This document shows, piece after piece, positions 24,869 to 55,955 of a stretch of 55,955 nt of DNA. The stretch is from a virus (Duplodnaviria; Caudoviricetes). The notes below the pieces were generated by a model, which worked only from the letters and a program-made list of their open reading frames with translations, ran no database searches and had not been told where the DNA came from. The position numbers and the translations under genes were made by a program. The stretch lies in IMG/VR virus record IMGVR_UViG_3300020055_002530, positions 1-55,955 of that record. One strand, 5' to 3'. Each line of letters begins with the position of its first letter. Within the stretch, counting starts at the first letter, position 1.

Positions 24869-26081
24869 ACAAATCCTTTAGTTCTGGGAATACACGTAAA
24901 AAGTTTTCTCCACGCTTCAAATCTAACTTTTGCATTTCTTCTCTAAACTTTGGAATAAAATGACTGTCATCTTTACTATACATAAAATTTATAATATTGT
25001 CTATACCATCTTGCAAAAATTGTTTACGAGTAGGATAAATTATTTTTTGTTCATATAAAGATTCTACATCTTGTTTAAACAATTCTAAACTTTGCTTTGC
25101 TTTGTCTTTAATATGTTCTGGTAATATTGTTATACTCAACCATTCTGGCCCAACCAATATATTACTGAAGTTAATATCATAATCTGTAGGAATTTTGTGT
25201 TCATACAAAAACTTTACAATATCAGCCAAATCTAAAATATTAAGGACACTAATAGTAGGATTAGGTTGTATAATTACGCCTTTATCATAACTGTGATCAA
25301 AATTATCACGTATATAACAAAGATTGTTAAACACAGTTTCCCATGATTGTCCATTACGTGTGTATTCTGCTTTTGCACCCATTTGATCTAAACTAACACA
25401 ATAAAAGATTTTATCAAAGTGTTTCCAGTAATCAGTAATATGTTTTCCTTTAAGGCTTAGGCGTGTTGCGTTGCTGTTGTATGTCAGTCTCGGTTTGAGT
25501 CCACGCTCTATGAGCATATCTAGCAATCTATAATGCTGTGGCATAAACAAACTTTCGCCGCCTGTAAAATATACTTCTTCTATTGTAGGCAGTATTTCTT
25601 CTATTTCTTCCCACATCTCAGGATGGTTGATTTCTACTATTTCAGGTTTACCAACAATATCTTCAGCCCACTTGCTGCTGAAGTGCGGTCCACAACTACG
25701 ACACTTCATATTACAAAGGTTACTAAAACGTACATCAAAATATGCCAAGTTCATTTGTTCTACGCTACCGTCATCACTGGTGGTTTGTACCAAATCATAA
25801 TGATGATTGTATTCTGTGTTAAATTTGTGTCTATAACTTATAACACCTTGTTCTTCATATTTGATACACTTTTCACATCCTTGACTACTTACGTTGTTTA
25901 ACATTCGTAGCCTAAGCTCACGCATTTTTTCACTGTTCCATACTCCTTTGAAACCAGCTTCATTGATATTACCAACTGGCATATCCCAATGATAAATGCA
26001 GCAAGGATATGCATCTCCGTTTTGCCATACGCTCATATGTGTCCACGGAGCCATACAAAAATGTTTTTTAAATTCTGTCAA
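24861..26081 (-). CDS. Radical SAM protein with N-terminal Twitch/SPASM-like domain
   Basis: FCMAPW..YPCC..CEKC; CNMKCRSC; TGGES; probable TTG start at 26081 overlapping the upstream TGA. Confidence 0.88.
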   Translation of the reverse strand: MTEFKKHFCMAPWTHMSVWQNGDAYPCCIYHWDMPVGNINEAGFKGVWNSEKMRELRLRMLNNVSSQGCEKCIKYEEQGVISYRHKFNTEYNHHYDLVQTTSDDGSVEQMNLAYFDVRFSNLCNMKCRSCGPHFSSKWAEDIVGKPEIVEINHPEMWEEIEEILPTIEEVYFTGGESLFMPQHYRLLDMLIERGLKPRLTYNSNATRLSLKGKHITDYWKHFDKIFYCVSLDQMGAKAEYTRNGQSWETVFNNLCYIRDNFDHSYDKGVIIQPNPTISVLNILDLADIVKFLYEHKIPTDYDINFSNILVGPEWLSITILPEHIKDKAKQSLELFKQDVESLYEQKIIYPTRKQFLQDGIDNIINFMYSKDDSHFIPKFREEMQKLDLKRGENFLRVFPELKDLYV

Positions 26082-27259
26082 TTTACTAACTCTACTATAC
26101 TGTCTACAATAGTATTCCAACTTATCTTACGAGATAAGAACAGTTTTTGGTTATGTATTAATTTATCAAAATATTCATTTTTGATTTTTGTTTTTAATAA
26201 GTCAATACGTGTGTTTTTTATATTGTGCCAAAGTTTCATTGCTTGTGTATAATCGCTGACTACACTAACTCCAAATAATTCTTCAAATGTTTCGTATCCT
26301 CTTGCTCTTAACAAACTATGTTGTTCAGGGTTGCCTACAATAAAAAACGGATGAAGATTCATTATTGCTTTATATGTCTTTTCTGTAATAAAGTTTTTAT
26401 GACTATCACTTTCTGTAATCACACTTAATATACTGTCATTGTAATAAGATTTTATACTATTTCCATAATTAATTACTTCTACCTTGTTTAAAACATCCAA
26501 TTTTCTATTGTACATTTCACGTACAAGGGCCATTTTAAAATCACTGTGTAACTCTTCAGGAATACGTTTTAATGTATGATGTGACTTTGCACAAGCATCG
26601 TGTTCCGTGCTGTCAACTTCGGGTAGGTTATAACTTACATATCCTTCATTGATAATATTACTTCTAAGTATACTATACATAAGCCATATTCTATGTGGTT
26701 TAATATTGCGGTTTAAACACAGAAATTTCTTAGATGCTTTATCAACATCAAATTCATCTGGATGAGTCAAAGATACATGAGGAAGTGTTTTGTGTTGATG
26801 CCTACTTAAACTTTCCCAAAAATTAATGCTGATATATTTTATTCCTTCTAAAGTTTTATTATGTGCTTCTAAATCACAACATAGAACTATAACTTTGTCT
26901 ATAGGTATTTTGTGCTTGTCAATTTCTCTACGCAATTCTTTTGGTTTAATAATACATTCAGTGACACTCACTAAACAATAAAATACATTTGGATCATTTC
27001 TTAACAATTTTAAAGTTTTTTTAGATGGTTGTAGGGTGACCCATTCCGGCATATGTACGATGTTTAAAATAAACTTTTTTGTATCTTTATCTAAAAAATT
27101 CAAATGATTTATATGGTAGAAATTACTATAGGTAAAATCATCATAGTGTCCAAACATATAATCAAAGGGCCTGTGATTTTTATCACCAGGTAAATCAAAA
27201 GTCAAACCACTGTAAGGAGTTTGTAGAATATTATCTACAAGGAAATAGCAATTGCTCAT
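26078..27259 (-). CDS. Hypothetical protein, possibly GT-B glycosyltransferase-like
   Basis: KKFLCLNR..HR and ITES...FITEKTYKAI...HPF motif, reminiscent of the YITEK motif of GT10-type enzymes. Confidence 0.5.
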   Translation of the reverse strand: MSNCYFLVDNILQTPYSGLTFDLPGDKNHRPFDYMFGHYDDFTYSNFYHINHLNFLDKDTKKFILNIVHMPEWVTLQPSKKTLKLLRNDPNVFYCLVSVTECIIKPKELRREIDKHKIPIDKVIVLCCDLEAHNKTLEGIKYISINFWESLSRHQHKTLPHVSLTHPDEFDVDKASKKFLCLNRNIKPHRIWLMYSILRSNIINEGYVSYNLPEVDSTEHDACAKSHHTLKRIPEELHSDFKMALVREMYNRKLDVLNKVEVINYGNSIKSYYNDSILSVITESDSHKNFITEKTYKAIMNLHPFFIVGNPEQHSLLRARGYETFEELFGVSVVSDYTQAMKLWHNIKNTRIDLLKTKIKNEYFDKLIHNQKLFLSRKISWNTIVDSIVELVN

Positions 27260-30656: not shown

Positions 30657-32144
30657 TTAGTTGCTGCTTTTACTCACAGAACTCAATACGATCAATAACA
30701 CACTGCTCACGATAAGACCTGGCACAATAGGTTCTACAAAGTTGTAAACACCCAAATCATATGTAATGCCTGTGAACAGTTTTGACTCTTTGAAGTGTAC
30801 GAACAAGATCCACGCAATACTTGTAGCAGCACCACCTAAGAAACTGATCAGCGCATTTGTACCGTTTGTTGCACCACGTGCCATAGCAATAACGTTGGGC
30901 AGCATAGCAGCACCAATAACACCAAAATACAATGCTGTGGCTCTTGCAATAATAGCAGCCTGTCCGTTGAACGCCACTGTCATATACAATGCTAGTATGA
31001 TAACCAAAATCATTGAACCATATGCAACTGTGAGTTTAGGTTGCTCTGTGCTGATAATATCATTGCTGATAGTTGTGCTTAACAAGTGCATCAAACTGTT
31101 CAGTGTTGTAAATGCTGCTGCAAGTACAGTTAGAAACAATGCACTAGACACCCAAGCAGGAAAGCCTGTTTTAATCCAGTATGGCACAATGTTTGCTGTA
31201 CCGCCTGCTGCTTGCATCACTGTTACACCTTCTGTAGCAAATGTATAACTGTTTGCTGTAATAGCTGCTAACATAAACGAAATGATTGCCAGTGCCGGAA
31301 TAACAATACCCCAACGTGCAATACTAGGAAAACTCTCTGCATCTTTGGCTAACATCCAACGTGTTTGTAGTTGTGGCAATGCAATAAGTCCTACTGGAAT
31401 AGTGAATACCAACAGTGTGGTAATCATCAACCAGCCTCTGCTCCAAAACTCAGGCCAAGAATCAAATCCTGTGAAGCCCAGTTTATACAAGCCATCGTCT
31501 GCAGGAACTGCTGTCCAAGCACCTACAAGGTTGTTCCAAAAGTCTGGCGTTTGCATATGCGAAAAGAATGTAATCCCAAGCACAATAAGAGAACCTGCTA
31601 CAACAACAAGTCCTTGCACCATATCATTTTTAATAACACTGTTGATACCGCCATATGCGATCGTAGCAAACACAAGCACACTGAATCCTACAACTGCTAG
31701 TGTGAAGTCAATGCCTGTGAATGTTGTAATAAACTTGCCTACGCCAATCAATACTGCCACACAATAAAATGGAATAAGCCCTACTGTGATTAGGGCCAGC
31801 AGTTTTGATAGTGCTGGTGAGTTGTAGTATTTGCCAATCAACTCAATATAGGTTTTAGCACCAATACGTTGATTTGCTTGCCACACTTTAGGACCTATAT
31901 ACACTGTGGCAAAATAGATTAGCCCTACAAATGGTATTACCATTGTGAGAGGTACTGAGAATCCAATCCAGCCCGCGAGGCCGCCGAAGCCTATAATAGC
32001 ACTTGTAGAGATAAGTGTTGCACCATAGGAAAGTCCTAGGTTTAGGTTGCTGTCTGAAGTTGTCATAAAGTAGTCATCACCTTTTGACCTGTAGGCAACA
32101 TAACCTACAACTGCTACAAACAACAGCATTAAAATAATATTCAT
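30657..32144 (-). CDS. Sodium:solute symporter (SSS family)
   Basis: About 13 hydrophobic segments; ATLISTSAIIG, YGGINSVIKNDMVQG, LPQLQTRW and LAAAFTTLNS; start at 32144 after AAGGAG. Confidence 0.9.
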   Translation of the reverse strand: MNIILMLLFVAVVGYVAYRSKGDDYFMTTSDSNLNLGLSYGATLISTSAIIGFGGLAGWIGFSVPLTMVIPFVGLIYFATVYIGPKVWQANQRIGAKTYIELIGKYYNSPALSKLLALITVGLIPFYCVAVLIGVGKFITTFTGIDFTLAVVGFSVLVFATIAYGGINSVIKNDMVQGLVVVAGSLIVLGITFFSHMQTPDFWNNLVGAWTAVPADDGLYKLGFTGFDSWPEFWSRGWLMITTLLVFTIPVGLIALPQLQTRWMLAKDAESFPSIARWGIVIPALAIISFMLAAITANSYTFATEGVTVMQAAGGTANIVPYWIKTGFPAWVSSALFLTVLAAAFTTLNSLMHLLSTTISNDIISTEQPKLTVAYGSMILVIILALYMTVAFNGQAAIIARATALYFGVIGAAMLPNVIAMARGATNGTNALISFLGGAATSIAWILFVHFKESKLFTGITYDLGVYNFVEPIVPGLIVSSVLLIVLSSVSKSSN

Positions 32145-32166
32145 AAAATTTCTCCTTAAAAATATT

Positions 32167-32241
32167 TGGCATAGGTGCAAGGAATCGAACCCTGTCTTTC
32201 GGATTTGGAATCCGACGTGCAACCATTAACACTTCACCCAT
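32167..32241 (-). tRNA. tRNA-Trp (CCA)
   Basis: Anticodon arm TCGGA-TTCCAAA-TCCGA; GGTTCGATTCC T-arm; encoded CCA. Confidence 0.93.
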
Positions 32242-41138: not shown

Positions 41139-42077
41139 TTATTCAACTGCGAACAATGCACTATCAAATTCGGATTTATCTTCAATGTTATCTAACATTT
41201 TTTTATACATATCATTATCACGTTCAATCAAGATAGCATTACGACCACTTTCATTACACGCAATACCTGTGCTTCCGCTGCCTGCAAATGTATCTAATAC
41301 AGTGTCGCCTTTATTTGTCAAAAGCTCAACAAAGTATTTTAGAACTTCTACTGGCTTTTGTGTAGGATGTATTTTTCCTCCAAGTCCGCCGCTGAATGTA
41401 ATTGTATTTGGAACAACTGCCTGTATTTTGCCATTTTCAAATTTTCTATTAGCAATCATTTTTTCTGCTTCTTTTTTAGCAGCCGCAAAAATATTATCTA
41501 AAGAGTCTGTGTGTACATTGTCTTTTACCATTCGATAAACTATATTGCTTACTTTGTCAGCAACACAATATCTATCTACAATATTGCCCCAATCGGTTGC
41601 TGCATTAAATGTTCGTTTACCTTTTGGCTTTATACCCCATAGTATAAATTCACAACCGCTTACAGGATTCACTGCACGGTTAAAAGGAACTGCTGCTGGC
41701 TTTTTCCAAGTAATAATACGCTTCGGTTCAAAGCCATTTGCCTCCATTATTTTCCACAAATAAGAAATATATTGATCACTAATAAAAACTGCAAACGCTG
41801 AACCTTTGCGCATTTTTTGGAACCATAGTTTGCTCCATTCATCTAACTGCTGCAAAAATTCTTCGTGTGTAACTGCATCCCAGTTTTCATCAAATGTTTC
41901 GCTAAACTGTTGACTGTGAATACTGTTTTTATTTTCTCCTGTTTCTTTATCAACCCAAACAGGCTTTGCACCTTTTTCACTGATATTGTAAGGAGGATCT
42001 GTAAGTAACAAATCAATGCTGCCATTTTCTACATTATCCAATTGCTCTTGCATTGATCCATTAAACGTTTTAATCAT
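41139..42077 (-). CDS. N6-adenine/N4-cytosine DNA methyltransferase (beta-class motif order)
   Basis: TDPPYN (motif IV) near the N-terminus; HPTQKP and LDTFAGSGSTG (motif I) near the C-terminus. Confidence 0.92.
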   Translation of the reverse strand: MIKTFNGSMQEQLDNVENGSIDLLLTDPPYNISEKGAKPVWVDKETGENKNSIHSQQFSETFDENWDAVTHEEFLQQLDEWSKLWFQKMRKGSAFAVFISDQYISYLWKIMEANGFEPKRIITWKKPAAVPFNRAVNPVSGCEFILWGIKPKGKRTFNAATDWGNIVDRYCVADKVSNIVYRMVKDNVHTDSLDNIFAAAKKEAEKMIANRKFENGKIQAVVPNTITFSGGLGGKIHPTQKPVEVLKYFVELLTNKGDTVLDTFAGSGSTGIACNESGRNAILIERDNDMYKKMLDNIEDKSEFDSALFAVE

Positions 42078-44003: not shown

Positions 44004-44222
44004 CTATAATCTGCGAGTTATACGACCTTTTTCTAAATCATATGGCGTCATTTCTATACGCACTCTATCGCCTGCTACTAGTCTGATCTTAAACTGGCGC
44101 ATCTTTCCGCCTGTATAACATACGACTATGTGATCATTATCTAACTTTACCTTAAACATTTGATTAGGCAGCACGTCTATAATGCTGCCTTCTACTTCTA
44201 TAATATCATTGTTTTTCGGCAT
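44004..44222 (-). CDS. infA: Translation initiation factor IF-1
   Basis: IEVEG..LPNQMFKVKLDNDH..GKMR..IRLVAGDRVRIEMTPYDLEKGRITRR; 72 aa. Confidence 0.95.
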   Translation of the reverse strand: MPKNNDIIEVEGSIIDVLPNQMFKVKLDNDHIVVCYTGGKMRQFKIRLVAGDRVRIEMTPYDLEKGRITRRL

Positions 44223-44388
44223 TATCCACTTTCGTAATGGACATGATTTTGTTTTCAGTTTTTATTTTCAAAACATCTCCTGGTTTCCATCCCATTTGCT
44301 CTGCAATTTCGTCTGGGATCTTCATTAGCACATTATCAGGATTGTCCGGATCATCCTCGAAAATGTCTTCTACTTTGTATTCAATCAT
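44206..44388 (-). CDS. AbrB/MazE/SpoVT-like small protein
   Basis: LMKIPDEIAEQMGWKPGDVLKI. Confidence 0.6.
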   Translation of the reverse strand: MIEYKVEDIFEDDPDNPDNVLMKIPDEIAEQMGWKPGDVLKIKTENKIMSITKVDNAEKQ

Positions 44389-44396
44389 ATTTACCA

Positions 44397-44588
44397 TCAA
44401 TCCACCAAAAAGTTAAGGTCTTCTAAGTCTTCGCGCAACACAAAGTCATCTGGTAGTTTTACACCTTGACCTTCACGGATATGCTCAAGCATATGTTTAA
44501 TATCTGTGATGCTAAATGCTGTATGTTTTTTTAAAACATTGTGTGCTTCTGTAAAATTAGCATTTGGTTTGTACCCAATAACCATCAT
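44397..44588 (-). CDS. Small protein with weak resemblance to the ribosomal bL12 C-terminal domain
   Basis: ANFTEAHNVLKKHTAFSITDIKHMLE..LEDLNFLV aligns loosely, by eye, to the bL12 CTD. Confidence 0.4.
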   Translation of the reverse strand: MMVIGYKPNANFTEAHNVLKKHTAFSITDIKHMLEHIREGQGVKLPDDFVLREDLEDLNFLVD

Positions 44589-45282: not shown

Positions 45283-45311
45283 AGTTTACTAGATAGGAAA
45301 GATAATGTCAA
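45283..45311 (-). promoter_or_regulatory. Sigma70-type promoter
   Basis: TTGACA-17 nt-TAAACT; the -35 box overlaps the start of the divergent ORF. Confidence 0.55.
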
Positions 45312-46213
45312 CCAGAAAACGCAGTCTTGTTATTGTAACTTGCCTTAAAGACAAATATAAATTAGAAATGTTGTGTAGAAGTATTTTTGCTTTTTTAGAA
45401 CCGTGTGACATAGTAATAATTTATAATGAAAGTTCTGAAAAATATACTGAATGGCTTGAATGGTTTAATTTGCTCAAAGAAAAAATATTAAAAAAGTTTT
45501 CTGTAAGAACATATTCTGGTCCTGATCTTGTTGGTATAGATAATTTTATTTATTGCAAAGATGATGGCTGGGTAAGACAACAAGCATTAAAATTACTTGC
45601 GTATAGTTTAGTAAACACGCTTGAATTTGTTACAATGGATAGTAAAAACTTTTTTATGGCTCCTTGTTCTTTAGATGACATTCAATACAGTCATCCACAT
45701 AATTATTGGAGACGCCCACGTTTAGAAAAATATGTAGAACACTGTTGCAAATTACTAGATTATCCATACGGTGGCGAAGAAATGAGATTGCGACCAAACA
45801 TTACTCCATATATTATAAAGACAAGATTCTGCAAAAGATTAGTAAAAAAATGGAATAACAATATAGACTTTTATAAATTTATTGTTGATACTGCAATGAT
45901 TCCAGAACTTGCTCCTGCTGAATTTTTATTGTATGAAATTTTTGAATTAAAATCTGGAGTTAGAGATGATCTATTGCAAGATATAAAACATCCAAAAGTA
46001 AATTATTGTACAATATGGTTCCATACACTTAAACACTCACACACACCAAAAGGACTTTCAGAAATTGTGGCCAAAAAACGAAACGATGGTATTCTGGTAA
46101 GTGGTATACATAAAAAGGTAGATGATTTCCTAACACTTCAAGATGTAGAAATATTATTAAAACATTTAGGTATAGATTTTATTTTACCCCAAACAGTTTC
46201 GAGTCCGTTTTAA
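45305..46213 (+). CDS. Glycosyltransferase-like protein (DUF6492-type)
   Basis: GWVRQQALKL, MDSKNFF, TPYI and EFLLY motifs. Confidence 0.55.
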   Translation: MSTRKRSLVIVTCLKDKYKLEMLCRSIFAFLEPCDIVIIYNESSEKYTEWLEWFNLLKEKILKKFSVRTYSGPDLVGIDNFIYCKDDGWVRQQALKLLAYSLVNTLEFVTMDSKNFFMAPCSLDDIQYSHPHNYWRRPRLEKYVEHCCKLLDYPYGGEEMRLRPNITPYIIKTRFCKRLVKKWNNNIDFYKFIVDTAMIPELAPAEFLLYEIFELKSGVRDDLLQDIKHPKVNYCTIWFHTLKHSHTPKGLSEIVAKKRNDGILVSGIHKKVDDFLTLQDVEILLKHLGIDFILPQTVSSPF

Positions 46214-47453: not shown

Positions 47454-47671
47454 TGTGGATGGATTACACAATAAATCAAGCAGGTCCTCACTTCAAAGTC
47501 ATGGGAGACTGGGAAGGCGAAGTTATGGGCGTAGCTCAAGACGGCACACAAAAAGATCATTACCTGTATAAACCTGGAGATGTATTCATTGTAAATGAGA
47601 ACGGTTGGCTTGTAAAATCGGATGAAGTTAATGCGCTTTTGTTAAAGCACGAGAGTAACAAGTCTGAATAA
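47450..47671 (+). CDS. Hypothetical protein
   Basis: ATGA overlap. Confidence 0.65.
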   Translation: MMWMDYTINQAGPHFKVMGDWEGEVMGVAQDGTQKDHYLYKPGDVFIVNENGWLVKSDEVNALLLKHESNKSE

Positions 47672-48287
47672 CTTCAGCAACCTTATCACTTACCATAGTT
47701 TCATAATGTGTATGAGCAACTTCAATGTGTTCCATATCTGTTCTATGACGCATTGATTCAATAGTACAAACACCATCATTAGGTCCGTTGTGATAAGGCA
47801 CTGACCCTGCTGTGCTTACTATTTGTGTCCATGGTATGTCTAATTCAATTTCATTTGCTTCACGTATAGGATCACTGCGTCTGCCAATATCTTTAAATAA
47901 TGGATAACTTGGTACAATATACTTTGCCCAGTCTGCTGTACTGCTACCACGGAATGGAGTGCTAATGCTGACGCCTCCAATAACACGCACATATTTTGTA
48001 AGATGTAGTGCATACAAACCACCCATGCTATGTCCTATTACAAAGTGTGGTCCTTTGCCTTTACAGTTGTCAGCAATCATTTCCAAGTTGTCATAGAAAC
48101 GATTCATACTAGAATAGTTTACCATTATCTCATTTGGAAACTGTGTTTTTGTTTGCAAATATTTAAAACTAAGGCTTGTCTGATTAGCACCATGACACCA
48201 GATGACGTTGATGTCATCTGTTGTGCGCTTTTCTTCTGTTTTATATAAACCAAACCAGTTGGCAACATATTCTCTAAGTGGTTGCAT
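47628..48287 (-). CDS. Alpha/beta hydrolase (lipase/esterase-like)
   Basis: HGAN, GHSMGG nucleophile elbow, STPFRGS, NDGV and THYE; likely start MQPL at 48287. Confidence 0.85.
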   Translation of the reverse strand: MQPLREYVANWFGLYKTEEKRTTDDINVIWCHGANQTSLSFKYLQTKTQFPNEIMVNYSSMNRFYDNLEMIADNCKGKGPHFVIGHSMGGLYALHLTKYVRVIGGVSISTPFRGSSTADWAKYIVPSYPLFKDIGRRSDPIREANEIELDIPWTQIVSTAGSVPYHNGPNDGVCTIESMRHRTDMEHIEVAHTHYETMVSDKVAEVIQTCYSRALTKAH

Positions 48288-48291
48288 ACAC

Positions 48292-50337
48292 TTATTTACT
48301 TGTTGCGATAAACACACCATTCCAGTCTGATGGTAAATCTTGTGTTTTCATATACTCACAACGTTCAATCCACATATCATAGTAGCCTTCCATCTTGTGA
48401 TCAAAATGATCGTGTAGCAAACGACATTTATCTATAGCATCATCAAATCTTTGCGCACGATAATCTTCGTGCATTTGTTCGTGTTTCTTTTGTGCAGATA
48501 CCCAGGCAGGTCCTATGTCATCTAGCACAGTGTAAATACTCAATCCTACTGATTTACCTTTTACTTGTAAGTCATCTACTTTGAGCCAAAAGAAGTCGTC
48601 TTTGATTGCTTCGTATGTGCTTTCTCCCACAAGTAATAAGCATCCGTATTCTTTACATTTGGATTCAACTCGTGCTGCTGTGCTGACAGCATCCCCGAGA
48701 ACATCATAACTATGGCGCTTAGTGCTACCCATTTCACCAATATAGCCAAGCCCAGTATTGATCCCAGCGCCCATACCAACAGGCGGCCTTCCTTCTGGTA
48801 TAATAATGTCTTCATTAAACTTCTCCACTGCTTTTAACATATCTAATCCACACTGTACTGCTGTGCGAGCGTGATTAGGATCGTCTACGGGTGCATTATG
48901 TATGTGCATACTAGCATCACCAATATACTTGATTATCATTCCGTCTGCGTCTAGCACAGGTTGTGTAATGGCATCCATATAGCCGTTCATTATTCTTGTG
49001 AGTCCTTGCACGTCATCGCCAAATGATTCACCCAATGGAGTAAAGCCACGCAAGTCTGAGAATACAATACTGACTTCTCTTTTGGTGCCTTGTTTGATAA
49101 GTGCAGGATTTTCTTGCAATATTTTTACAACTGCTGGTGATGCATAACCTTCGAATTGTTTCTTTATTGCTTGTTTTTGCAAGAACTCATCTATGAACTT
49201 GAGCACATAGCGTTTTAATCCTACTAAAATTAAAAATGCTGCTGGTATAAACCCGTCGACGAGCAATCCGTACTGTGCAAATATATAGTAACTACCATAT
49301 AGGCCACCGCCAACTGCCAACACAAAAAAGGCTATGCCGAAATACGTCCATCGTGCGATTAAAATAAGTATTATACCTGCTGCTACAAAGGCGGCTAACT
49401 CTGCCCATTGTTCTGCATCTGGTTGTCTTGCAATGTTTGATTCATTAAAAACTGTACCTAACATTGCTGCTTGGATTTCATGTGGAAACACTGAACCTGC
49501 TGCTGTTGCAAGTGGCTGTGTTACACCTGCTGCTGTAGGTCCTACAAACACTATACCTCCAGCAAAATCATCTGGTAAATCTACTGCGCTGTAAGACTTT
49601 GACTTTTGACTCCAGTCTATCCATACTTCGCCTGTTGGTGATGTTTGTATAATACCAAACTGTGGTATACGCAACTTGTCTACACCCATAGGAGATAGTT
49701 TGATTTGGAAACTTGGATCACCTGCTAATACACGAAGCACTTCCATAGTAACATTTGGATACAATGTGCCTCCGGATTCAACCACTAATGGTATGCGTCT
49801 AGTTACACCATCTATTTCTGGCCAGCTGTTTGTAATGCCTGACCCAACTGCTGAATTTTCGATATCGGGGACATTTGCAATGATTCCTGGCACACTAGGA
49901 ATAGTGTAAAGATAATCACTGTTAACGATAGTAGCACCAGGATTGATTGGTTCATTTTTATTTTCCTCTGCCCCCAGCATTGTGATAATAACTGGAAGTT
50001 GTGACATAGTCAAGGCAAGATCGATATCCTCGCCTTGACGGTCTGTTTCGCTCATCAACACGTTAAACACAACTAGTCCAGCGCCTCTGGCATACAACTC
50101 CTCTATGAGGCTACCATAATCACCTCTTGGCCAAGGCCATTGCCCGTATTCCTCTAAACTTGATTCGTCAATGTTAACAGTGTAGATGTTGTTTTCTACG
50201 GCTTGCTGATTCACTATCAGTGTATCAAAGTATCGTAGTTTAAGACTTTCTAAGAACGGTGGATTGCTGTACATCACCCACGCAAGAATGCCCAAAACTA
50301 TAATGCTCCAAATAGGGGAAAATATTATCTTTTTCAT
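48292..50337 (-). CDS. CHASE2-domain membrane class III adenylate cyclase
   Basis: N-terminal TM; CHASE2 motifs VNIDESSL..GQWPWPR, DGVTRRIPL; three TMs; cyclase motifs FSDLRGFT, KYIGDA, GINTG, YDVLGDAVSTAARVE and VKGK. Confidence 0.92.
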   Translation of the reverse strand: MKKIIFSPIWSIIVLGILAWVMYSNPPFLESLKLRYFDTLIVNQQAVENNIYTVNIDESSLEEYGQWPWPRGDYGSLIEELYARGAGLVVFNVLMSETDRQGEDIDLALTMSQLPVIITMLGAEENKNEPINPGATIVNSDYLYTIPSVPGIIANVPDIENSAVGSGITNSWPEIDGVTRRIPLVVESGGTLYPNVTMEVLRVLAGDPSFQIKLSPMGVDKLRIPQFGIIQTSPTGEVWIDWSQKSKSYSAVDLPDDFAGGIVFVGPTAAGVTQPLATAAGSVFPHEIQAAMLGTVFNESNIARQPDAEQWAELAAFVAAGIILILIARWTYFGIAFFVLAVGGGLYGSYYIFAQYGLLVDGFIPAAFLILVGLKRYVLKFIDEFLQKQAIKKQFEGYASPAVVKILQENPALIKQGTKREVSIVFSDLRGFTPLGESFGDDVQGLTRIMNGYMDAITQPVLDADGMIIKYIGDASMHIHNAPVDDPNHARTAVQCGLDMLKAVEKFNEDIIIPEGRPPVGMGAGINTGLGYIGEMGSTKRHSYDVLGDAVSTAARVESKCKEYGCLLLVGESTYEAIKDDFFWLKVDDLQVKGKSVGLSIYTVLDDIGPAWVSAQKKHEQMHEDYRAQRFDDAIDKCRLLHDHFDHKMEGYYDMWIERCEYMKTQDLPSDWNGVFIATSK

Positions 50338-50504
50338 TTATTCACATTAATCCATACACAATCTACTGTCTGATTTTTGTCTGTAACAAGCACACTTGCT
50401 GCGCTCATAGCTGTGACACAAGTATCTTTATCTGGATAGTTGCCTAAATGATATGTTTCCATTTGTTGTGTGCTAGTTAAAGCTAACCATATTAATGCCC
50501 ACAT
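50334..50504 (-). CDS. Small secreted/membrane protein (56 aa); not in ORF track
   Basis: MWALIWLALTS..YPDKDTCV..VDCVWINVNK; ATGA overlap with the cyclase start. Confidence 0.6.
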   Translation of the reverse strand: MWALIWLALTSTQQMETYHLGNYPDKDTCVTAMSAASVLVTDKNQTVDCVWINVNK

Positions 50505-50668
50505 AAAACTTTCTCCAATAATTCTTTTTTCAAATGCTGGCCATTTTTGTTGAGAAAATCTCTAATATGGTCGTTGTTTTCTTTAGTATCCAATGGCATT
50601 GCTTCTCCGATCATTTCTGTGTCTGCAGGTAACTGATCAGCCACAGGTATTGTTTTTTCAAATTTCAT
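50492..50668 (-). CDS. Hypothetical protein (58 aa); not in ORF track
   Basis: MKFEKTIPVADQLP..EKVLCGH; GAGGAG SD; TAAATA at 50686-50691. Confidence 0.55.
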   Translation of the reverse strand: MKFEKTIPVADQLPADTEMIGEAMPLDTKENNDHIRDFLNKNGQHLKKELLEKVLCGH

Positions 50669-50688
50669 TGCCCTCTCCTCACTGGTAT

Positions 50689-51000
50689 TTATTCTTCTTC
50701 TTCCAGTACGTCAAAAAACATTTCAAATAATATAAGGAATATCATTACTACAAGTGCTGCAACGATCGTAAGTGGGATTAATATTGCTTTTACCCAGCGT
50801 GGTTTCTTTTCAATCCAGTGTATAACACGTTTTATATATTTTTTTATACTTTCAGCAAAAAAGTTACTTAGAGTAAAACGCACTAGTCGCATAACAATCA
50901 GTATAGGAGATGTGAGTACATCAAACAGTATCAAGAATAGGTCTACGGATAAGTCCACAATGTGATCCACATTGAACCATTTTTTTATCCGTTGCCACAT
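50689..51000 (-). CDS. Membrane protein
   Basis: Hydrophobic segments and acidic tail. Confidence 0.65.
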   Translation of the reverse strand: MWQRIKKWFNVDHIVDLSVDLFLILFDVLTSPILIVMRLVRFTLSNFFAESIKKYIKRVIHWIEKKPRWVKAILIPLTIVAALVVMIFLILFEMFFDVLEEEE

Positions 51001-51381
51001 TTACTTCTTCCAATTGTTTTTAGCCGTTAACTTTTTCTTAAGGGCATCCATTTCTTCTCGTTTTTTTCTTGCTTTCTCAACTTCTTTCATAGTATCTTCA
51101 TACCAGTTGCTGTTGTCTACCTTCTTATCATTCTTCTTGCGTACTGGAGGTTTTTCAGGTCCGGATACCTCCAATACACTACTGGGCTCTTCCTCTCTCT
51201 TGGTTTCAGTTTGAACCCTAGGTGTCGGTGGAGAAAAACTTTCTCGGAGTCGTTTGATTCGTTCTTGGAGGTTTTGTTGTTTTGACTCATAATACCTTTC
51301 ATACATTTTCTCCTTAAATCTTTGGTCCACTAGTTCCTCAACGTATGGCTTTAACATACTCATCAATAATTTTCGCAGCAT
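51001..51381 (-). CDS. Hypothetical charged coiled-coil protein
   Basis: TAATG-coupled start MLRKLL at 51381. Confidence 0.6.
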   Translation of the reverse strand: MLRKLLMSMLKPYVEELVDQRFKEKMYERYYESKQQNLQERIKRLRESFSPPTPRVQTETKREEEPSSVLEVSGPEKPPVRKKNDKKVDNSNWYEDTMKEVEKARKKREEMDALKKKLTAKNNWKK

Positions 51382-51863
51382 TACCAATTTCCGTTAAAAG
51401 CACCAATCACATAAATTATAACTCCTAATACTAACGCACCGGTTAGAGCAGCAAGTGTACCTACAACGAATTCTAATATTGCTTGCTTACGTTCTTCTGC
51501 TGCATAAATTGCTTCTTTGCGTTCTTTGCGCATTTTTGCTTCAATAGCAACTATTTCATCCCAAGCACTAGGACCATAGAAGAAACTGATGTAACCTTTG
51601 AGTTCATCACGCATTTCTTTTGCTTTTTGCTTGTGTCCCCAGACTTCCAATGCATTTTGTTCTATTTGGCTTTGACCAAATATCTTTTTAAACATTGGTG
51701 GATTTTCTGCCTGTCTATGTGCAAAATCTAAATCACTGATAGATGTTGCCCATTGGTTAAGTGTGCCAGCCATATCGCTAAGTTCTTTACCTGTGTCAAT
51801 AGCTGATTTTATTCCTCGGTATGCTGCCGTGGCCATACCAAGTGCTGATACTGGATCAATCAT
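51381..51863 (-). CDS. Phage membrane-anchored protein
   Basis: MIDPVSALGMATAAY N-terminus, coiled coil and C-terminal TM. Confidence 0.7.
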   Translation of the reverse strand: MIDPVSALGMATAAYRGIKSAIDTGKELSDMAGTLNQWATSISDLDFAHRQAENPPMFKKIFGQSQIEQNALEVWGHKQKAKEMRDELKGYISFFYGPSAWDEIVAIEAKMRKERKEAIYAAEERKQAILEFVVGTLAALTGALVLGVIIYVIGAFNGNW

Positions 51864-51902
51864 TCACCCTCTCTTTTCTAGCAGTTTGCCCTCTGCTATT
51901 GA

Positions 51903-51910
51903 TATTTATA
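51903..51910 (-). promoter_or_regulatory. T4-type late promoter
   Basis: Exact TATAAATA (T4 gp55 consensus) in an intergenic region; the TAAATA core recurs upstream of many genes. Confidence 0.65.
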
Positions 51911-51928
51911 TAAAAAAGAGGTTATGTA

Positions 51929-52285
51929 TTAGTTTATTATATATTCTATTCCAAAAACCAATCCTACATTTACTGTGTCATCGTGCCAAGTTTCATATGA
52001 TGGTGCTACGAATGCTCTTACAGAACCATAATCATATGTGCCTCTTACATAAGGTGCAATTGGACCAAATGCTGGATACCCTGTAACGCCTGCCAGTTCT
52101 ATACCTATGTTGTCCGTGATTTCCATCCTATGTCCTACATACACACTAAGCCTATCAACGCTGTTGTAGTATGCTCCTGCTATAGCGCCATCCTCTATAT
52201 ACCTTACGTGTGGATGAACATTGTTATAACTATCTGCTAGTCCTACGTGTGCGCTTAACGCTAGAGAGAATATTATCGGTTCCAT
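51929..52285 (-). CDS. Small outer-membrane beta-barrel-like protein
   Basis: Alternating hydrophobic beta-strands, C-terminal LVFGIEY; H..AYYNS..S.Y loosely PagP-like; start MEPII overlaps the curlin stop. Confidence 0.55.
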   Translation of the reverse strand: MEPIIFSLALSAHVGLADSYNNVHPHVRYIEDGAIAGAYYNSVDRLSVYVGHRMEITDNIGIELAGVTGYPAFGPIAPYVRGTYDYGSVRAFVAPSYETWHDDTVNVGLVFGIEYIIN

Positions 52286-53343
52286 TAGTTTTGACTCACT
52301 GTTACGTTGCAACCATTACCATTAGTGCAAATACCTGTCAGGCTGTAAGTCTTGTTTGTGTTTGTGTTATTAGTAGTCTGATTGCTAGTCACTGAATAAG
52401 CACCGCCGCTGTTTGTGAGATCAACTTCAAATGAATGTGCCATAGTGCCACGTTGACTGGCATCTACACTGTGATCATCACCTGTAAGCACTATGTCTGC
52501 CCATTGTTGTCCACCATTGCCTCTTTGATATAGTTCTACTGTGTTGCTGTCGCCTTGTATTTCTATAAAACCATCGTGTCCTGCTTTGCCTTTTTGTGTA
52601 TGTGTAACTGAATTGTCATCACCATTTACAACATTTGCTATATGATGTCCGGCACCACCACCACTGGCTCTGTTGGTGTCTGTTTGATAACTGTCTAGCA
52701 TATTATTATCGCCTGTAACAGTCCAGTATACTTCGTGATCACCAGTTTCGTCACCGTCTACAGTGTTATCTGAATGCTTGCCTTGCCAAGCATTGACAGC
52801 ATTATAATTACCCGATACTACAACACGGCTAAAGTTATTGTCTGATCCTTGATAACTATCTAAGTCATTGCTGTCTCCGTCGGCTTCTGCATACGATTCG
52901 TTGTAATCACCGTTTTGATATATTACGATTGTATTGCCATCATCACTGTAACTACTGCCAGTTTCGGCGTGAGCATCATTGTTGTCACCTAGTTGTGTAA
53001 CGCTCATTGTGCAGTCTTCACCGTGACAATCTATCACAGCCGCATTATTATCGCCAGTCTGTGTTAGAGTGCTACTACTATCTCCTATATCAGCATTGTA
53101 AAATCCAAGCGTATTGTTGTTGCCTGTTTGTGAATAAGTGTATGTTGAAGGACCATAACTTCCTAACAAACCTTTGTTTGATAGATTATTCAAATCACCA
53201 ATCTTGTTATTTTCTCCATCCTGAGTGATAGTCACAGTGACATCGTCACCTATCTGATTAATATAGATTTCATTACTAGAAGTTACGTTGGGTAATAGTA
53301 ATACTATTCCCGCCGCCCACGCCAACACGGTAGCCGTATTCAT
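52285..53343 (-). CDS. Curlin-repeat (CsgA/CsgB-like) secreted protein
   Basis: Signal peptide, then more than 10 imperfect Q-x-G-x-x-N repeats (QDGENN, QTGNNN, QTGDNN, QLGDNN, QNGDYN). Confidence 0.75.
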   Translation of the reverse strand: MNTATVLAWAAGIVLLLPNVTSSNEIYINQIGDDVTVTITQDGENNKIGDLNNLSNKGLLGSYGPSTYTYSQTGNNNTLGFYNADIGDSSSTLTQTGDNNAAVIDCHGEDCTMSVTQLGDNNDAHAETGSSYSDDGNTIVIYQNGDYNESYAEADGDSNDLDSYQGSDNNFSRVVVSGNYNAVNAWQGKHSDNTVDGDETGDHEVYWTVTGDNNMLDSYQTDTNRASGGGAGHHIANVVNGDDNSVTHTQKGKAGHDGFIEIQGDSNTVELYQRGNGGQQWADIVLTGDDHSVDASQRGTMAHSFEVDLTNSGGAYSVTSNQTTNNTNTNKTYSLTGICTNGNGCNVTVSQN

Positions 53344-54385
53344 AAAAACTCTCCTGTTCCATATCTATAGTGTATCCATAACCTTGATCCAATGTAAGTT
53401 GGAATATGTGCTGATCACCTTCTTGTCTACGCACGACAAAATTAGGAAATGGTTCATCATAAAAAATATTTGTTTCTGGATCAAGTCCTAAAAACTTTAC
53501 ATCTAATAATTCTTGGTTTTGCACTGTAAGTTCATCAATCCACTGTGCTAATATCTCCTGTAGTTGACGTTCCATTTCGTCTACCCACACAGGATTCAAG
53601 TAGGTCATATTGTCTAAGTCTGTTACCCAAATGTTTTTGATGCCTTCTATCAATGGATCTTTATCCAGTTCATCAAACTTTAGGAAATCAATGTCCAACA
53701 GATTGGTCTCTGGATAGCGTTTTACTATTTCTTCTGTGTATGGGTCTACTTTTCTTATTATTAACATTGATGTAAGCATATTTTCAGGCAAGTCTAATAT
53801 CACTGTAGGACCAGGTATCGCTCCGCTGTGTGGCACCACTGTGGTTTGATATGCTTGGTTCATTATAACCTGTCCAACATCTGATTCAACTGATATTTCG
53901 CCCACAATACATTGTCCTGATGCATCACAACTTGGTAACAATGTTATCATTGATCCACCTACTTCATCTATAATCATTATAAAGTCTGTGCCTCGCACGT
54001 TGATTGTAGCACTTGGTGTTCTTATATTCACACGTTGTCTGCTGTTCTTTGCTATTTGTCCTGACGCATAACGCACTGCTCCTAATGTGGCTTTCATACT
54101 TAGTGCGCCAGTTTTTGTGTTTGGGTCATAGATAAATTCGTCTATGGTCATACGTGAATGTTCTGTAACATCAACACGGGTCTCATCCACAAAGTCCATA
54201 CGTAAACTGCCTTTGCCTGTGATGATCCTATCGTTCATCTCAAGCCCAAGTCCTACTTCGCCGTCATACTTGAGTTGTTCACGTTCAACAACACTGCTGC
54301 CTTTATGCTGTGCTATTTCCCCAATGCTTGCGTATACAGGTGTGGTTAAAATTAATAGACTAATCAGACTGCGTAATATCAACAT
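53276..54385 (-). CDS. Secreted FecR-domain protein
   Basis: Signal peptide; DRIITG..FVDETRV..EHS..G.VR..TPSATINVRGTDF FecR signature. Confidence 0.85.
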   Translation of the reverse strand: MLILRSLISLLILTTPVYASIGEIAQHKGSSVVEREQLKYDGEVGLGLEMNDRIITGKGSLRMDFVDETRVDVTEHSRMTIDEFIYDPNTKTGALSMKATLGAVRYASGQIAKNSRQRVNIRTPSATINVRGTDFIMIIDEVGGSMITLLPSCDASGQCIVGEISVESDVGQVIMNQAYQTTVVPHSGAIPGPTVILDLPENMLTSMLIIRKVDPYTEEIVKRYPETNLLDIDFLKFDELDKDPLIEGIKNIWVTDLDNMTYLNPVWVDEMERQLQEILAQWIDELTVQNQELLDVKFLGLDPETNIFYDEPFPNFVVRRQEGDQHIFQLTLDQGYGYTIDMEQESFYEYGYRVGVGGGNSITITQRNF

Positions 54386-55097
54386 CATGCTCGTCACCTG
54401 AGAATGTAGCATCTACTGTGTTGTCTTTAACACCGCTTTGTTTAATGTAGTAGTTACTGCCGCCGCCGGTGATGTCAAGGGTAACGCTGTGTCCTGCACT
54501 GTCGCCATCTCCATCTTGATCTATCTCGATTACCGTACCACCTTGTCCTGATGTGTATGTTGATGTTGAATCTGATGTTGTTGCTGTGCTTATGGTGTTA
54601 CTGTTATCTAATGTAATGTTTACTACTGCGCTTGTTCCATCTACTTCAGTGATCAATATGTTTCCGTCACCGTCTACTTCAAAGTCTACCTGTGCTCCGT
54701 CAGCATCTGCTGTTTCACCAATTTCTAGATAGTACTTGTTGGTATCGCCTTGTGTTGCAATATTCAGCGTAACGTTTTCACAGTTTACACCTGATGTATC
54801 ATCACAGACCAAATCAACAAAATTGTTGTTGCCTGTAAAAGTCCAAGTACCAGTATATGAATTACCTTTTATTTTAGCATCAATAATATTGCTGTTACCT
54901 GTTTGTGTTATGCTGAACGTCATATCATCACCGTCCAGAGTTACATCGGTGGTTGAATCACCAAACTCGTTATCTGTTCCATCTTGGGTAATATCCAAGT
55001 CTAATGTGTCACCAATTTGTGTGATGTAAATCTCGTTTGCATACGCTGCACTTGCGAGAACCAATGACAGGATAGCCCCGTATAGTATTGCCCTCAT
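54360..55097 (-). CDS. Curlin-repeat-like secreted protein
   Basis: Signal peptide (AYA|NEIYITQIGD); QDGTDN, QTGNSN, QGDTN and QSGVKDN repeats; very acidic. Confidence 0.7.
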   Translation of the reverse strand: MRAILYGAILSLVLASAAYANEIYITQIGDTLDLDITQDGTDNEFGDSTTDVTLDGDDMTFSITQTGNSNIIDAKIKGNSYTGTWTFTGNNNFVDLVCDDTSGVNCENVTLNIATQGDTNKYYLEIGETADADGAQVDFEVDGDGNILITEVDGTSAVVNITLDNSNTISTATTSDSTSTYTSGQGGTVIEIDQDGDGDSAGHSVTLDITGGGSNYYIKQSGVKDNTVDATFSGDEHDVDITQSD

Positions 55098-55171
55098 TTT
55101 ATATCATCCTCCGGCTTACGCCAAACATATTTATCCGTCCCTCACAGCCACATAAATACAAAGATATTTAG

Positions 55172-55187
55172 TGTAAATATTTTTACA
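55172..55187. promoter_or_regulatory. Palindromic operator TGTAA-N6-TTACA
   Basis: Inverted repeat in the divergent intergenic region between the curlin-like and Fis-like genes. Confidence 0.5.
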
Positions 55188-55203
55188 GTAAAGTAGGTGT
55201 TTA

Positions 55204-55476
55204 ATGAATATAAATACAGTTATGAGCGCATTAGAAAAAGCAGAAAAAATACACAAAGAACAACAAGAATTTTGGGATACATTCGACGAAATTTGGCCTG
55301 TGCAAGACCGTCACTATGACGATAAATGCTTACACGACGAAGTAGATGATTTTATAATAGATAGGATTTCATCAGCTCTAAAAGAGTGCAATCACAATCG
55401 CACACACACTGCTGATAAATTAGGAATAAAAAGGGAAACGCTTTTGGCTAAGATGAAGAAGTATTGTCTTCTTTAA
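55204..55476 (+). CDS. Fis-type helix-turn-helix regulator
   Basis: ISSALKECNHNRTHTADKLGIKRETLLAKMKKY matches the Fis/HTH_8 pattern. Confidence 0.85.
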   Translation: MNINTVMSALEKAEKIHKEQQEFWDTFDEIWPVQDRHYDDKCLHDEVDDFIIDRISSALKECNHNRTHTADKLGIKRETLLAKMKKYCLL

Positions 55477-55955
55477 ACTTCCACAGTTTTTGTTCAGCGC
55501 CTTGATAAATTAATTCTATAATTGCTGCTTCTATGGCTTGACGCACTGCATAGTTTGTTGGTTCATTTACTGAATATCCAGTTTCTATTTCCAATGCTTC
55601 TGTGCCTAAATCAAAAAACTTAAATGCGCTCGCACCTTGTCTGTAACTTGCTATTGATTTTTCTGCTGCTACACTTACTAGTACACGCCCTGTGCTAACA
55701 CTTACAAGACGCATAGCAACTGTTACAGTGTCAACTCTGTATTCAACTGCTGTACCTACCCCCAAATACATAGCACCATTACCGCCAGTTTGAATATTGC
55801 TATCATAACCTACGATGCCGCCTTCGACTAACACACCTGCAAACTTCATTGCTGCTAATGGTGTAGGATTGTCTTTTTCATAGTTTTCTCTTGTGTTACG
55901 TATAAGTTGACGTTCTTTAATAACGTGATCCATTCCGCCACGTTCTACAACTTCA
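55448..55955 (-). CDS. csgG: Curli secretion channel CsgG, partial (5' end beyond window)
   Basis: EVVERGGMDHVIKERQLIR, EGGIVGYDSNIQTGG.GA.YLGVG, YRVDTVTVAMRLVSVSTG and E.GYSVNEP; frame open to window end. Confidence 0.9.
   Translation of the reverse strand, partial: EVVERGGMDHVIKERQLIRNTRENYEKDNPTPLAAMKFAGVLVEGGIVGYDSNIQTGGNGAMYLGVGTAVEYRVDTVTVAMRLVSVSTGRVLVSVAAEKSIASYRQGASAFKFFDLGTEALEIETGYSVNEPTNYAVRQAIEAAIIELIYQGAEQKLWKFKEDNTSSS

Follow-up and report, generated by a model that had tools for sequence, protein, structure and literature searches.

The viral contig IMGVR_UViG_3300020055_002530 of IMG/VR (55,955 bp; hereafter the window, meaning the whole of this stretch of DNA) ends in a cluster of genes for curli secretion that also encodes a FecR protein and a CHASE2-type cyclase. 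This region is the larger part of a known type VIII secretion system (T8SS) module, carried here by an uncultivated relative of the phages Melnitz and HTVC008M. The list of open reading frames (ORFs) was searched against Pfam and PHROGs. Twelve co-directional ORFs on the minus strand pack positions 47628-55955 nearly gap-free, and the features of the region are as follows.

55448-55955, minus strand: csgG, 3' two-thirds, truncated by the window end (PF03783, E 3.2e-38; phrog_20175, 4e-51).
55204-55476, plus strand: Fis-type helix-turn-helix (HTH) ORF, 90 amino acids (aa) (HTH_8, E 9.4e-10, 38.5 bits, cut-off 22).
54360-55097, minus strand: curlin-repeat protein 1 (curlin 1), 245 aa (Curlin_rpt, 7.9e-7, 29.4 bits, cut-off 20.7).
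53276-54412, minus strand: the long-form FecR protein (FecR-long), 378 aa (PF04773, 2.3e-7; phrog_37870, 4e-92).
52285-53343, minus strand: curlin-repeat protein 2 (curlin 2), 352 aa (Curlin_rpt, 4.5e-16, five stretches).
50334-52312, minus strand: a group of six small ORFs.
48292-50337, minus strand: cyclase with CHASE2 and Guanylate_cyc domains, 681 aa (CHASE2, 9.9e-36; Guanylate_cyc, 1e-18; phrog_35576, 5e-173).
47628-48320, minus strand: alpha/beta hydrolase, 230 aa (Abhydrolase_6, 6.9e-6, 27.3 bits, cut-off 26.3; GHSMG nucleophile elbow).

The original prediction, made from the letters alone, had listed csgG, the curlins, FecR, the small ORFs, the CHASE2 cyclase and the hydrolase on a single strand, and all of these genes are present; the plus-strand Fis-type ORF had been left out of that list. 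The gene overlaps that it described were likewise found. According to the ORF coordinates, curlin 1 and FecR-long overlap by 53 nucleotides (nt), FecR-long and curlin 2 by 68 nt, and curlin 2 and the following ORF by 28 nt (TTG start) or 1 nt (ATG start). Two further overlaps are those between p56 and the cyclase (4 nt) and between the cyclase stop and the hydrolase start (29 nt). This arrangement is not due to chance, because it was found again in dozens of diverged loci. A 2393-aa tail-fibre protein (PHROG match) and further phage genes provide the phage context of the window, and megablast of the locus against a phage collection gave zero matches.

Modules of this kind have been described before. 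The available text of Wittmers et al. (2022; PMC9599517) presents a pelagiphage T8SS consisting of CsgF, CsgG, CsgA/B, FecR, a second CsgA/B and an adenylate cyclase, and places the cluster in pelagiphages of the Podoviridae and Myoviridae. Both FecR and the cyclase are termed 'putatively regulatory' there, an alphaproteobacterial origin is inferred, and global distribution and metatranscriptome expression are reported, with curli-carrying myophages and podophages at all 65 GOV2.0 ocean stations. The same text adds that FecR and the cyclase may be absent in some cases, states that bacterial T8SS operons do not contain them, and reports CsgE, CsgC and CsgD as missing from both viral and alphaproteobacterial modules. 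The operon is given as CsgF, CsgG, a pair of hypothetical proteins and one protein associated with curli in the available text of Zaragoza-Solas et al. (2020; PMC7029224), and that of Buchholz et al. (2022; PMC9004378) argues for a lysis-timing pore, with csgA and csgB said to be missing. FecR, the cyclase and CHASE2 are unmentioned in the main text of the latter two papers. 'CHASE' has 0 occurrences in the main text of PMC9599517, whose figures or supplements may give the domain make-up of the cyclase or bacterial loci with FecR and the cyclase, and full-text literature searches for CHASE2 with curli and for T8SS with FecR and adenylate cyclase returned only an unrelated S. meliloti paper and PMC9599517. 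The co-location of FecR and the cyclase with curli genes had therefore been published earlier. The locus is a further copy of the known aquatic-phage curli module and adds no new kind of system. What is added here beyond the published module is the identity of the cyclase as a CHASE2 receptor, the C-terminal domain of FecR, the cassettes of Caulobacteraceae, a clade of cyclases with Ser in place of Asn, and the Fis-type gene.

The two isolates, Melnitz (a Methylophilales phage) and HTVC008M (a Pelagibacter phage), are Kyanoviridae. GenBank gives the same order in both, namely csgF, csgG, curlin, FecR or hypothetical protein, curlin or hypothetical protein, and adenylate cyclase, and tail and baseplate genes come next on the opposite strand. 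By tblastn, the window cyclase is 51% identical to that of Melnitz and 34% identical to that of HTVC008M, and FecR-long is 44% and 47% identical, respectively. A survey anchored on csgG covered the best 80 of at least 578 viral stretches with a CsgG relative, using hidden Markov model (HMM) and phmmer scans. CsgF was present in 80/80 loci and a curlin 1-like ORF in 77/80. FecR-long was found in all 70 loci having at least 1 kb after csgG; it was not scorable in the other 10 since those end within 810 bp of csgG. The cyclase was found in 37/37 loci having at least 6 kb after csgG and in 39/40 having at least 5 kb. The original prediction had named as a weak point that FecR and the cyclase might not co-occur with curli genes in related phages, and these counts show that they do wherever the DNA suffices. 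The order csgG, curlin, FecR and then cyclase was kept in 48 of the 51 loci with both FecR and cyclase, and the latter two genes were adjacent or overlapping in 6/48 viral loci. A second survey, anchored on FecR and comprising 23 loci, placed the cyclase in 13/13 loci having at least 7.8 kb after FecR, while the other 10 end within 3.2 kb after FecR. The two surveys are not independent because some contigs are common to both.

The module was also found in bacterial chromosomes. A genome scan with the FecR alignment, in which the best 80 of 181 relatives were kept, returned 14 long-form FecR loci, all within curli cassettes wherever flanks exist, and 66 short bacterial FecR loci, which had neither csgG nor csgF nearby. 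Twelve of the 14 long-form loci are phage DNA mis-binned into metagenome-assembled genomes (MAGs): their GC content is 32-41%, and their flank genes, wherever flanks exist, are common to viral contigs. In the MAG holding one long-form locus (L034), contig 1, which is probably the contig of that locus, carries a T4 portal gene. A complete cassette is present in two Caulobacteraceae MAG chromosomes (L035, 7137-13103; L036, 7148-13136), with the order csgF, csgG, curlin, curlin, FecR-long and CHASE2 cyclase, the last two genes overlapping. GC content is 54-57% at these two loci, the flanks encode methylmalonyl-CoA mutase, acyl-CoA dehydrogenase, amidohydrolase and TetR, and viral homologues were found for 0/35 and 0/40 of the flank ORFs. 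FecR-long is rare in this family, occurring in 2/301 sampled Caulobacteraceae genomes; among 401 Alphaproteobacteria, it was found in the query genome alone, apart from one 1694-aa ORF that contained a partial match. In a quick tree of the FecR N-terminal domain (81 rows; rows with X or shorter than 140 aa dropped), the cassette FecRs formed a single clade of 15 rows with a Shimodaira-Hasegawa-like approximate likelihood ratio (SH-aLRT) support of 99, in which the two bacterial rows stood to one side; this tree resolved no sister group for the cassette FecRs. The six core genes co-occur strictly across diverged phages and two Caulobacteraceae chromosomes.

The window itself ends inside csgG, and csgF, for which an upstream check had been proposed, was located in contig L127, which encodes a CsgG C-part, a curlin 1 and a FecR that match the window proteins at 100% identity. 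There, csgF (CsgF Pfam, 1.9e-10) lies directly upstream of a full-length csgG that carries a lipobox (LAITGC). CsgG and CsgF probably make an outer-membrane channel. Further upstream of csgF in L127 (5756-9537), lookalikes of ribosomal protein S21, Hsp20, ClpS, haem oxygenase and bilin reductase were recognized by eye, and the 356-aa ORF adjoining csgF gave no Pfam match. Curlin 1, curlin 2 and FecR-long all start with signal-peptide-like segments, suggesting that both curlins and the FecR protein are Sec-exported. These Sec-type N-termini indicate that the curlin-repeat proteins are exported and are not virion fibres, so that the concern that they might be beta-helix fibres of the virion was not upheld.

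Curlin_rpt scored above the Pfam cut-off in both curlins, and their repeat structure and termini are kept across all lineages. Curlin 2 also matched the NCBIfam CsgA (8e-8) and CsgB (1.6e-5) equivalogs, at 32 and 25 bits, far under the respective cut-offs of 160 and 165. The AlphaFold2 (AF2) model of curlin 1 is all-beta with long paired strands (predicted local distance difference test, pLDDT, 79.6; predicted template modelling score, pTM, 0.79). A search of this model against PDB gave nothing at E <=1e-3, the weak matches were beta-helix and solenoid proteins, and a CsgA entry was not among the matches listed. Both curlins begin straight with the repeat, and a long unstructured N-terminal targeting segment, for which N22 of E. 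coli CsgA serves as the comparison, is not evident. They end with ...VDITQSD (curlin 1) and ...VTVSQN (curlin 2).

FecR-long is composed of a signal peptide, a FecR/PupR-type domain (~30-217), an acidic linker (~210-300) and a C-terminal domain (~305-375), and it ends with ...GGGNSITITQRNF. In the AF2 model (pLDDT 83.7), the N-terminal beta domain (31-205) and the six-strand C-terminal domain are confident; the acidic linker is of low confidence and partly helical. PF04773 matches 37/37 family members. The N-terminal domain (model residues 58-217) aligned with the C-terminal signalling domain of PupR (6ovk_R) at Z 15.4 with a root-mean-square deviation of 2.8 over 137 residues, and with a Parabacteroides anti-sigma factor (4m0n) at Z 14.2. 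Only ~30 residues, signal-peptide-like, precede the FecR domain; therefore, FecR-long is without a cytoplasmic anti-sigma domain. The FecR-long profile found nothing under E 0.97 among PDB sequences, and residues 300-378 gave no usable match in the ESM Atlas. A Foldseek match to 5ix9 (MpIBP periplasmic anchor, E 3.7e-3) had suggested that the C-terminal domain is an RTX-adhesin plug. This idea was dropped because 5ix9 aligns to model residues 27-121, which lie in the N-terminal domain (VIA-align Z 7.5).

The C-terminal domain sets FecR-long apart from its relatives. Outside curli cassettes, the 66 bacterial relatives mostly measure ~150-340 aa, with a few of 370-450 aa, and align only over the N-terminal FecR domain; hence, the C-terminal domain is a curli-specific addition. 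At its end, G-x-x-N-x-I-x-I-x-Q followed by 0-4 residues is nearly invariant, in proteins that are 27-46% identical. Distinct tails were scored for the motif [ILVMFYA]-x-[ILVMFYA]-x-Q-x(0-4)-end. It was present in 57/58 tails of FecR-long, in 70/101 tails of curlin-like ORFs (some of which are cut at contig ends), and in 34/1510 tails of the controls, i.e., all other ORFs of at least 100 aa from the same loci. Comparison of the FecR-long and curlin 1 profiles by hhalign gave a sole match, which covered the last ~41 columns end to end (E 0.016).

The cyclase comprises a first transmembrane (TM) segment, CHASE2 (~25-320), three TM segments, a catalytic domain (418-596) and a conserved C-terminal extension. 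Pfam spans are 17-323 for CHASE2 and 418-596 for Guanylate_cyc, and the hydrophobic segments lie at 3-24 and in a cluster within 308-382. From this pattern, the protein is expected to combine a periplasmic CHASE2 sensor with a cytoplasmic catalytic domain. Its closest solved relatives are the bacterial class III adenylate cyclases 6fht (5e-24), 2w01 and 3r5g. The class III catalytic set consists of two metal Asp residues, a substrate Lys together with Asp or Thr, and the transition-state Asn and Arg. An alignment of 19 sequences shows no variation at D428, D474, K470 and R556, and D545 is present in the window. The set is not complete in the window cyclase: the Ser of GDAVSTAAR occupies the position of the catalytic Asn. 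In another locus (L032, 4825-6663), a frameshift or stop, or else an assembly error, breaks the cyclase near residue 250 into ORFs of 257 and 355 aa.

Our favoured explanation, with a probability of roughly 0.55, is that the locus is the known curli module and that FecR-long is an adaptor coupling the state of the curlins to the cyclase. FecR-long would be a periplasmic adaptor, not an iron regulator. Its FecR/PupR-type N-terminal domain would contact the CHASE2 sensor; in FecA-FecR and PupB-PupR, domains of this type connect a partner in the outer membrane with a signalling protein in the inner membrane. The curli-specific C-terminal domain, which ends in an h-x-h-x-Q strand as both curlins do (h, hydrophobic), would interact with the fibre, the CsgG/F channel or curlin subunits, and the output of the cyclase would be set by the state of curlin secretion or assembly. 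The confinement of the C-terminal module to curli cassettes argues for functional coupling, not mere co-location. Also in favour is the recurrence of a three-part layout of outer-membrane protein, FecR and CHASE2 in the Sulfurovum-type loci described below, and a comparable arrangement in S. meliloti, where the outer-membrane protein NsrA feeds CHASE2 cyclases. Whether the coupling of FecR and the cyclase to curli is real could go either way, at about even odds. Sensing of the fibre with cAMP as the output is more doubtful. Least probable among these parts is the idea that FecR-long is an amyloid-assembly sensor, in which the C-terminal domain would add as a strand onto curlin or the nascent fibre at CsgG/F and the PupR-like domain would switch the cyclase. 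The trans-envelope signalling proposed originally is partly supported: the strong gene association and the curli-specific tail of FecR are in favour, whereas the co-location was known earlier and the window cyclase is without the catalytic Asn.

Several observations weigh against this explanation. The tail common to FecR-long and the curlins is real as a motif, but the likeness appears to be at motif level only and not an established curlin repeat: the hhalign probability of the match was only 2.8%, and Pfam Curlin_rpt matched 0/37 FecR-long proteins even at E 1. The two genes are often apart. The gap from the FecR end to the cyclase ORF ranges from -75 to 4178 bp (median 952), the cyclase is relocated in 3/51 loci where both were seen, and in the window it is not adjacent, lying 2.9 kb and seven genes downstream of FecR. 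Among bacteria, a CHASE2 ORF lies within 600 bp of 7/66 short FecR loci, and a FecR N-domain ORF lies within 1.5 kb in 4/30 of the best alphaproteobacterial CHASE2 loci (CHASE2 was found in 63/151 Alphaproteobacteria); these counts rest on HMMs built for this analysis and may undercount. The statement that CHASE2 cyclases commonly neighbour FecR genes in bacteria was therefore borne out as a recurrence but not as to 'commonly', since the pairs are a minority.

The active site and the reading of the nucleotide are further points on this side. Among 85 cassette and related cyclases, 42, including those of the window and Melnitz, have Asp at the substrate position and Ser at the position of the catalytic Asn. 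The type with Thr or Ser and Asn accounts for 33, including HTVC008M, Caulobacteraceae and free-living bacterial CHASE2 cyclases; 1 pairs Asp with Asn, and 9 are truncated. An Asn-to-Ser exchange in a mammalian cyclase causes a strong drop in kcat. Ser at the Asn position was always accompanied by Asp at the substrate position, and this paired, conserved change speaks for an enzyme that works in altered form and against decay; the change from Thr/Asn to Asp/Ser could mean altered kinetics or another nucleotide product. A CAP-type cNMP_binding domain was found neither in the window, the complete Melnitz and HTVC008M genomes and three large related contigs, nor in one incomplete 0.9-Mb Pelagibacter MAG. 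The two Caulobacteraceae genomes hold 7 and 6 such domains. Contact of FecR-long with CHASE2, CsgG or curlin is hypothetical; complex prediction for CHASE2 25-320 and FecR-long 30-378 with alignments scored 0.00 in two runs, which is evidence neither way.

An unlikely but the best surviving alternative takes FecR plus the CHASE2 cyclase as a self-contained unit for envelope signals, which was captured and is inherited along with the curli genes but senses something that has nothing to do with them, such as envelope stress, a host cue or superinfection. Pairs of a short FecR and a CHASE2 cyclase do exist without curli, at seven bacterial loci (L048, L050, L052, L054, L087, L089 and L093). At the Sulfurovum/Sulfurimonadaceae loci among them (L052, 2-4161; L048, L050 and L054), a TPR and beta-barrel protein (SlipAM/BBP2-like), a short FecR and a CHASE2 cyclase are encoded consecutively, and this trio is possibly an outer-membrane-to-cyclase relay without curli. 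Other short FecR genes adjoin housekeeping genes or genes for a methyl-accepting chemotaxis protein, a PAS kinase or TPR proteins. Inserts of up to 4.2 kb between FecR and the cyclase, the three loci with a relocated cyclase, and the collection of unrelated morons in hypervariable regions of phages (available text of PMC7029224) also fit a self-contained module. Such a module does not account for the position of the FecR gene between two curlin genes with overlapping reading frames, for the confinement of the long FecR to curli cassettes (14/14 in the genome scan and 70/70 in the viral survey), for the tail motif common to FecR-long and the curlins, or for the six genes remaining together in phages and two bacterial chromosomes.

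A somewhat less probable reading takes FecR-long as a periplasmic secretion adaptor or chaperone for curlin that replaces CsgE or CsgC, with the cyclase as a separate regulator that does not read FecR. CsgE, CsgC and CsgD are reported absent (available text of PMC9599517), although the absence of CsgE, CsgC and CsgH does not come from our own profile searches. The curlins start with the repeat and have no long unstructured targeting segment, and the shared C-terminal strand could act as a recognition element. This reading leaves unexplained both the FecR/PupR-type signalling fold and the constant company of a CHASE2 receptor.

It is improbable that no fibres are made and that CsgG/F is a gated pore for lysis timing or uptake (Buchholz et al. 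2022; Zaragoza-Solas et al. 2020), timed or gated by the cyclase and FecR. According to the available text of PMC9004378, clumping of Melnitz-infected cells was not seen, extra CsgF domains were modelled, and the genes are syntenic with thyX, ssrA and lysis genes. The premise of missing csgA and csgB fails, however, since two exported Curlin_rpt proteins are encoded here and are annotated in the GenBank record of Melnitz too, and the curlin repeat structure and termini are conserved in all lineages. That FecR is a classical ferric citrate regulator and that, as in E. coli, the cyclase affects curli transcription via cAMP-CRP, as suggested by the family name and the discussion in the available text of PMC9599517, can hardly be the case, given a signal-peptide-like start with the FecR domain from ~30 and so without a cytoplasmic anti-sigma domain, no extracytoplasmic function (ECF) sigma factor or TonB-dependent transducer among the Pfam matches of the neighbourhood, and no CAP-type domain in the phage genomes searched.

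If the idea of FecR-long as an amyloid-assembly sensor is true, the infected cell, or the rare Caulobacteraceae with the cassette, would translate how a fibre outside the cell is faring into a cyclic-nucleotide signal in the cytoplasm. Candidate roles of the module are aggregation, superinfection exclusion, lysis timing and uptake. The CHASE2 identity of the cyclase, an exported FecR with a curli-specific tail, and the bacterial six-gene unit turn the 'regulatory' pair into hypotheses that are testable in E. coli.

The genes between curlin 2 and the cyclase are as follows.

51929-52312, minus strand: conserved 118-127-aa protein, called a beta-barrel in the original prediction (phrog_3600, PagP-like, 5.4e-7).
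50334-51863, minus strand: five small variable ORFs of 160 aa (C-terminal TM segment; phrog_32327), 128 aa (charged), 103 aa (two TM segments), 58 aa and 56 aa.

The name 'beta-barrel' is putative and has as its sole support the weak PagP-like PHROG match; the protein gave no Pfam, NCBIfam or PDB match and has no clear signal peptide. It is conserved, and its position varies in relatives, e.g., upstream of csgF in L021-L024. The presence of the five small ORFs differs among related loci. Melnitz and HTVC008M are without the small ORFs, and the cyclase comes straight after curlin 2 there. The hydrolase after the cyclase was found in the clade of the window only (10 loci, L008, L011-L015, L017, L018, L020 and L024, plus L129, L133 and L134) and is absent at the Melnitz and HTVC008M cassettes. 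At window position 48331, 39 nt before the cyclase stop, contigs of the RNA libraries X15, X16 and X18 diverge into the same foreign sequence, and co-occurring strains seem to differ in the hydrolase region. Antisense to its neighbours csgG and curlin 1, the Fis-type HTH gene sits between them and overlaps the 3' end of csgG. NCBIfam Fis matched it at 1.8e-4, under the cut-off, and 35 homologous ORFs were found in related loci, either in the same place or antisense just upstream of csgF. Its product is a candidate local transcription factor of the module.

At least half of the sampled words of the locus are contained in 14 DNA runs. Four salt-marsh RNA libraries, from one year, one habitat and maybe one campaign, gave near-identical short contigs over 25, 20, 13 and 6 of 30 bins; such contigs carry no information on strand or level and may stem from DNA carry-over, making this weak evidence of expression. 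Bins 50408-50963 and 53188-53465 were uncovered in all four libraries, which is uninformative. A promoter scan was at chance level (32 seen versus 29.7 expected), and terminator-like sites were likewise uninformative.

Other genes were recorded elsewhere in the window.

1108-8289, minus strand: tail-fibre protein, 2393 aa.
17971-19383 and 24861-26120, minus strand: two radical-SAM-like proteins within a long minus-strand block (phrog_14086).
30657-32222, minus strand: sodium:solute symporter family protein, 521 aa (SSF, 8.3e-19).
41139-42077, minus strand: DNA methyltransferase (phrog_67, 9e-49).
44004-44222, minus strand: phage-encoded IF-1 homologue, 72 aa (Pfam eIF-1a, 1.1e-21).
44206-44400, minus strand: 64-aa ORF with a weak MazE/AbrB-like match (9e-5, under the cut-off).
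45305-46213, plus strand: DUF6492 protein (2.3e-9).

CheckV completeness was 15% for the 56-kb window contig and 37% for a related 133-kb contig (holding L022). These values imply a genome of ~360 kb, whereas those of Melnitz and HTVC008M measure 141-147 kb; either the estimate is wrong or the lineage is far larger.

Finally, the module was compared with known systems. In FecA-FecR-FecI and PupB-PupR, the cell-surface signalling fold of PupR is the same as that of the phage FecR N-terminal domain (6ovk, Z 15.4; 4m0n, Z 14.2). Unlike these regulators, the phage FecR is without the TM anti-sigma half and has an extra C-terminal domain, and a sigma factor and a TonB-dependent transducer were not among the Pfam matches of the phage neighbourhood. 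According to the available text of PMC5192318, the 'BiofilmReg' operon of Burkholderia and P. aeruginosa encodes an exported LysM-FecR directly upstream of a CHASE2 receptor. It differs in its output, through a histidine kinase and a response regulator, and in its partner domain, which is LysM and not curli-linked. The NsrA pathway of S. meliloti, in which a plant protein signal is passed by a beta-barrel protein of the outer membrane to the CHASE2 adenylate cyclases CyaD1, CyaD2 and CyaK (available text of PMC13001267), resembles the phage module in that an outer-membrane component is encoded beside a CHASE2 adenylate cyclase and, as proposed for the phage, a signal traversing the envelope ends in cAMP; its output is read by the CRP-type Clr, whereas none such was found in the phage genomes searched. 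The canonical curli system of E. coli and Salmonella (csgBAC, csgDEFG) has in common with the phage module a CsgG lipoprotein channel, CsgF and exported curlin-repeat subunits. In contrast to the canonical subunits, the phage curlins are longer (245 and 352 aa), stay far under the CsgA and CsgB equivalog cut-offs and are without an obvious N-terminal targeting segment, and the phage module adds FecR-long and the CHASE2 cyclase. The closest system is the pelagiphage T8SS of Melnitz and HTVC008M, whose core genes and gene order are the same as in the lineage of the window; to these, the window lineage has added the block of six small ORFs, mostly for membrane proteins, the alpha/beta hydrolase after the cyclase, and the antisense Fis-like gene.

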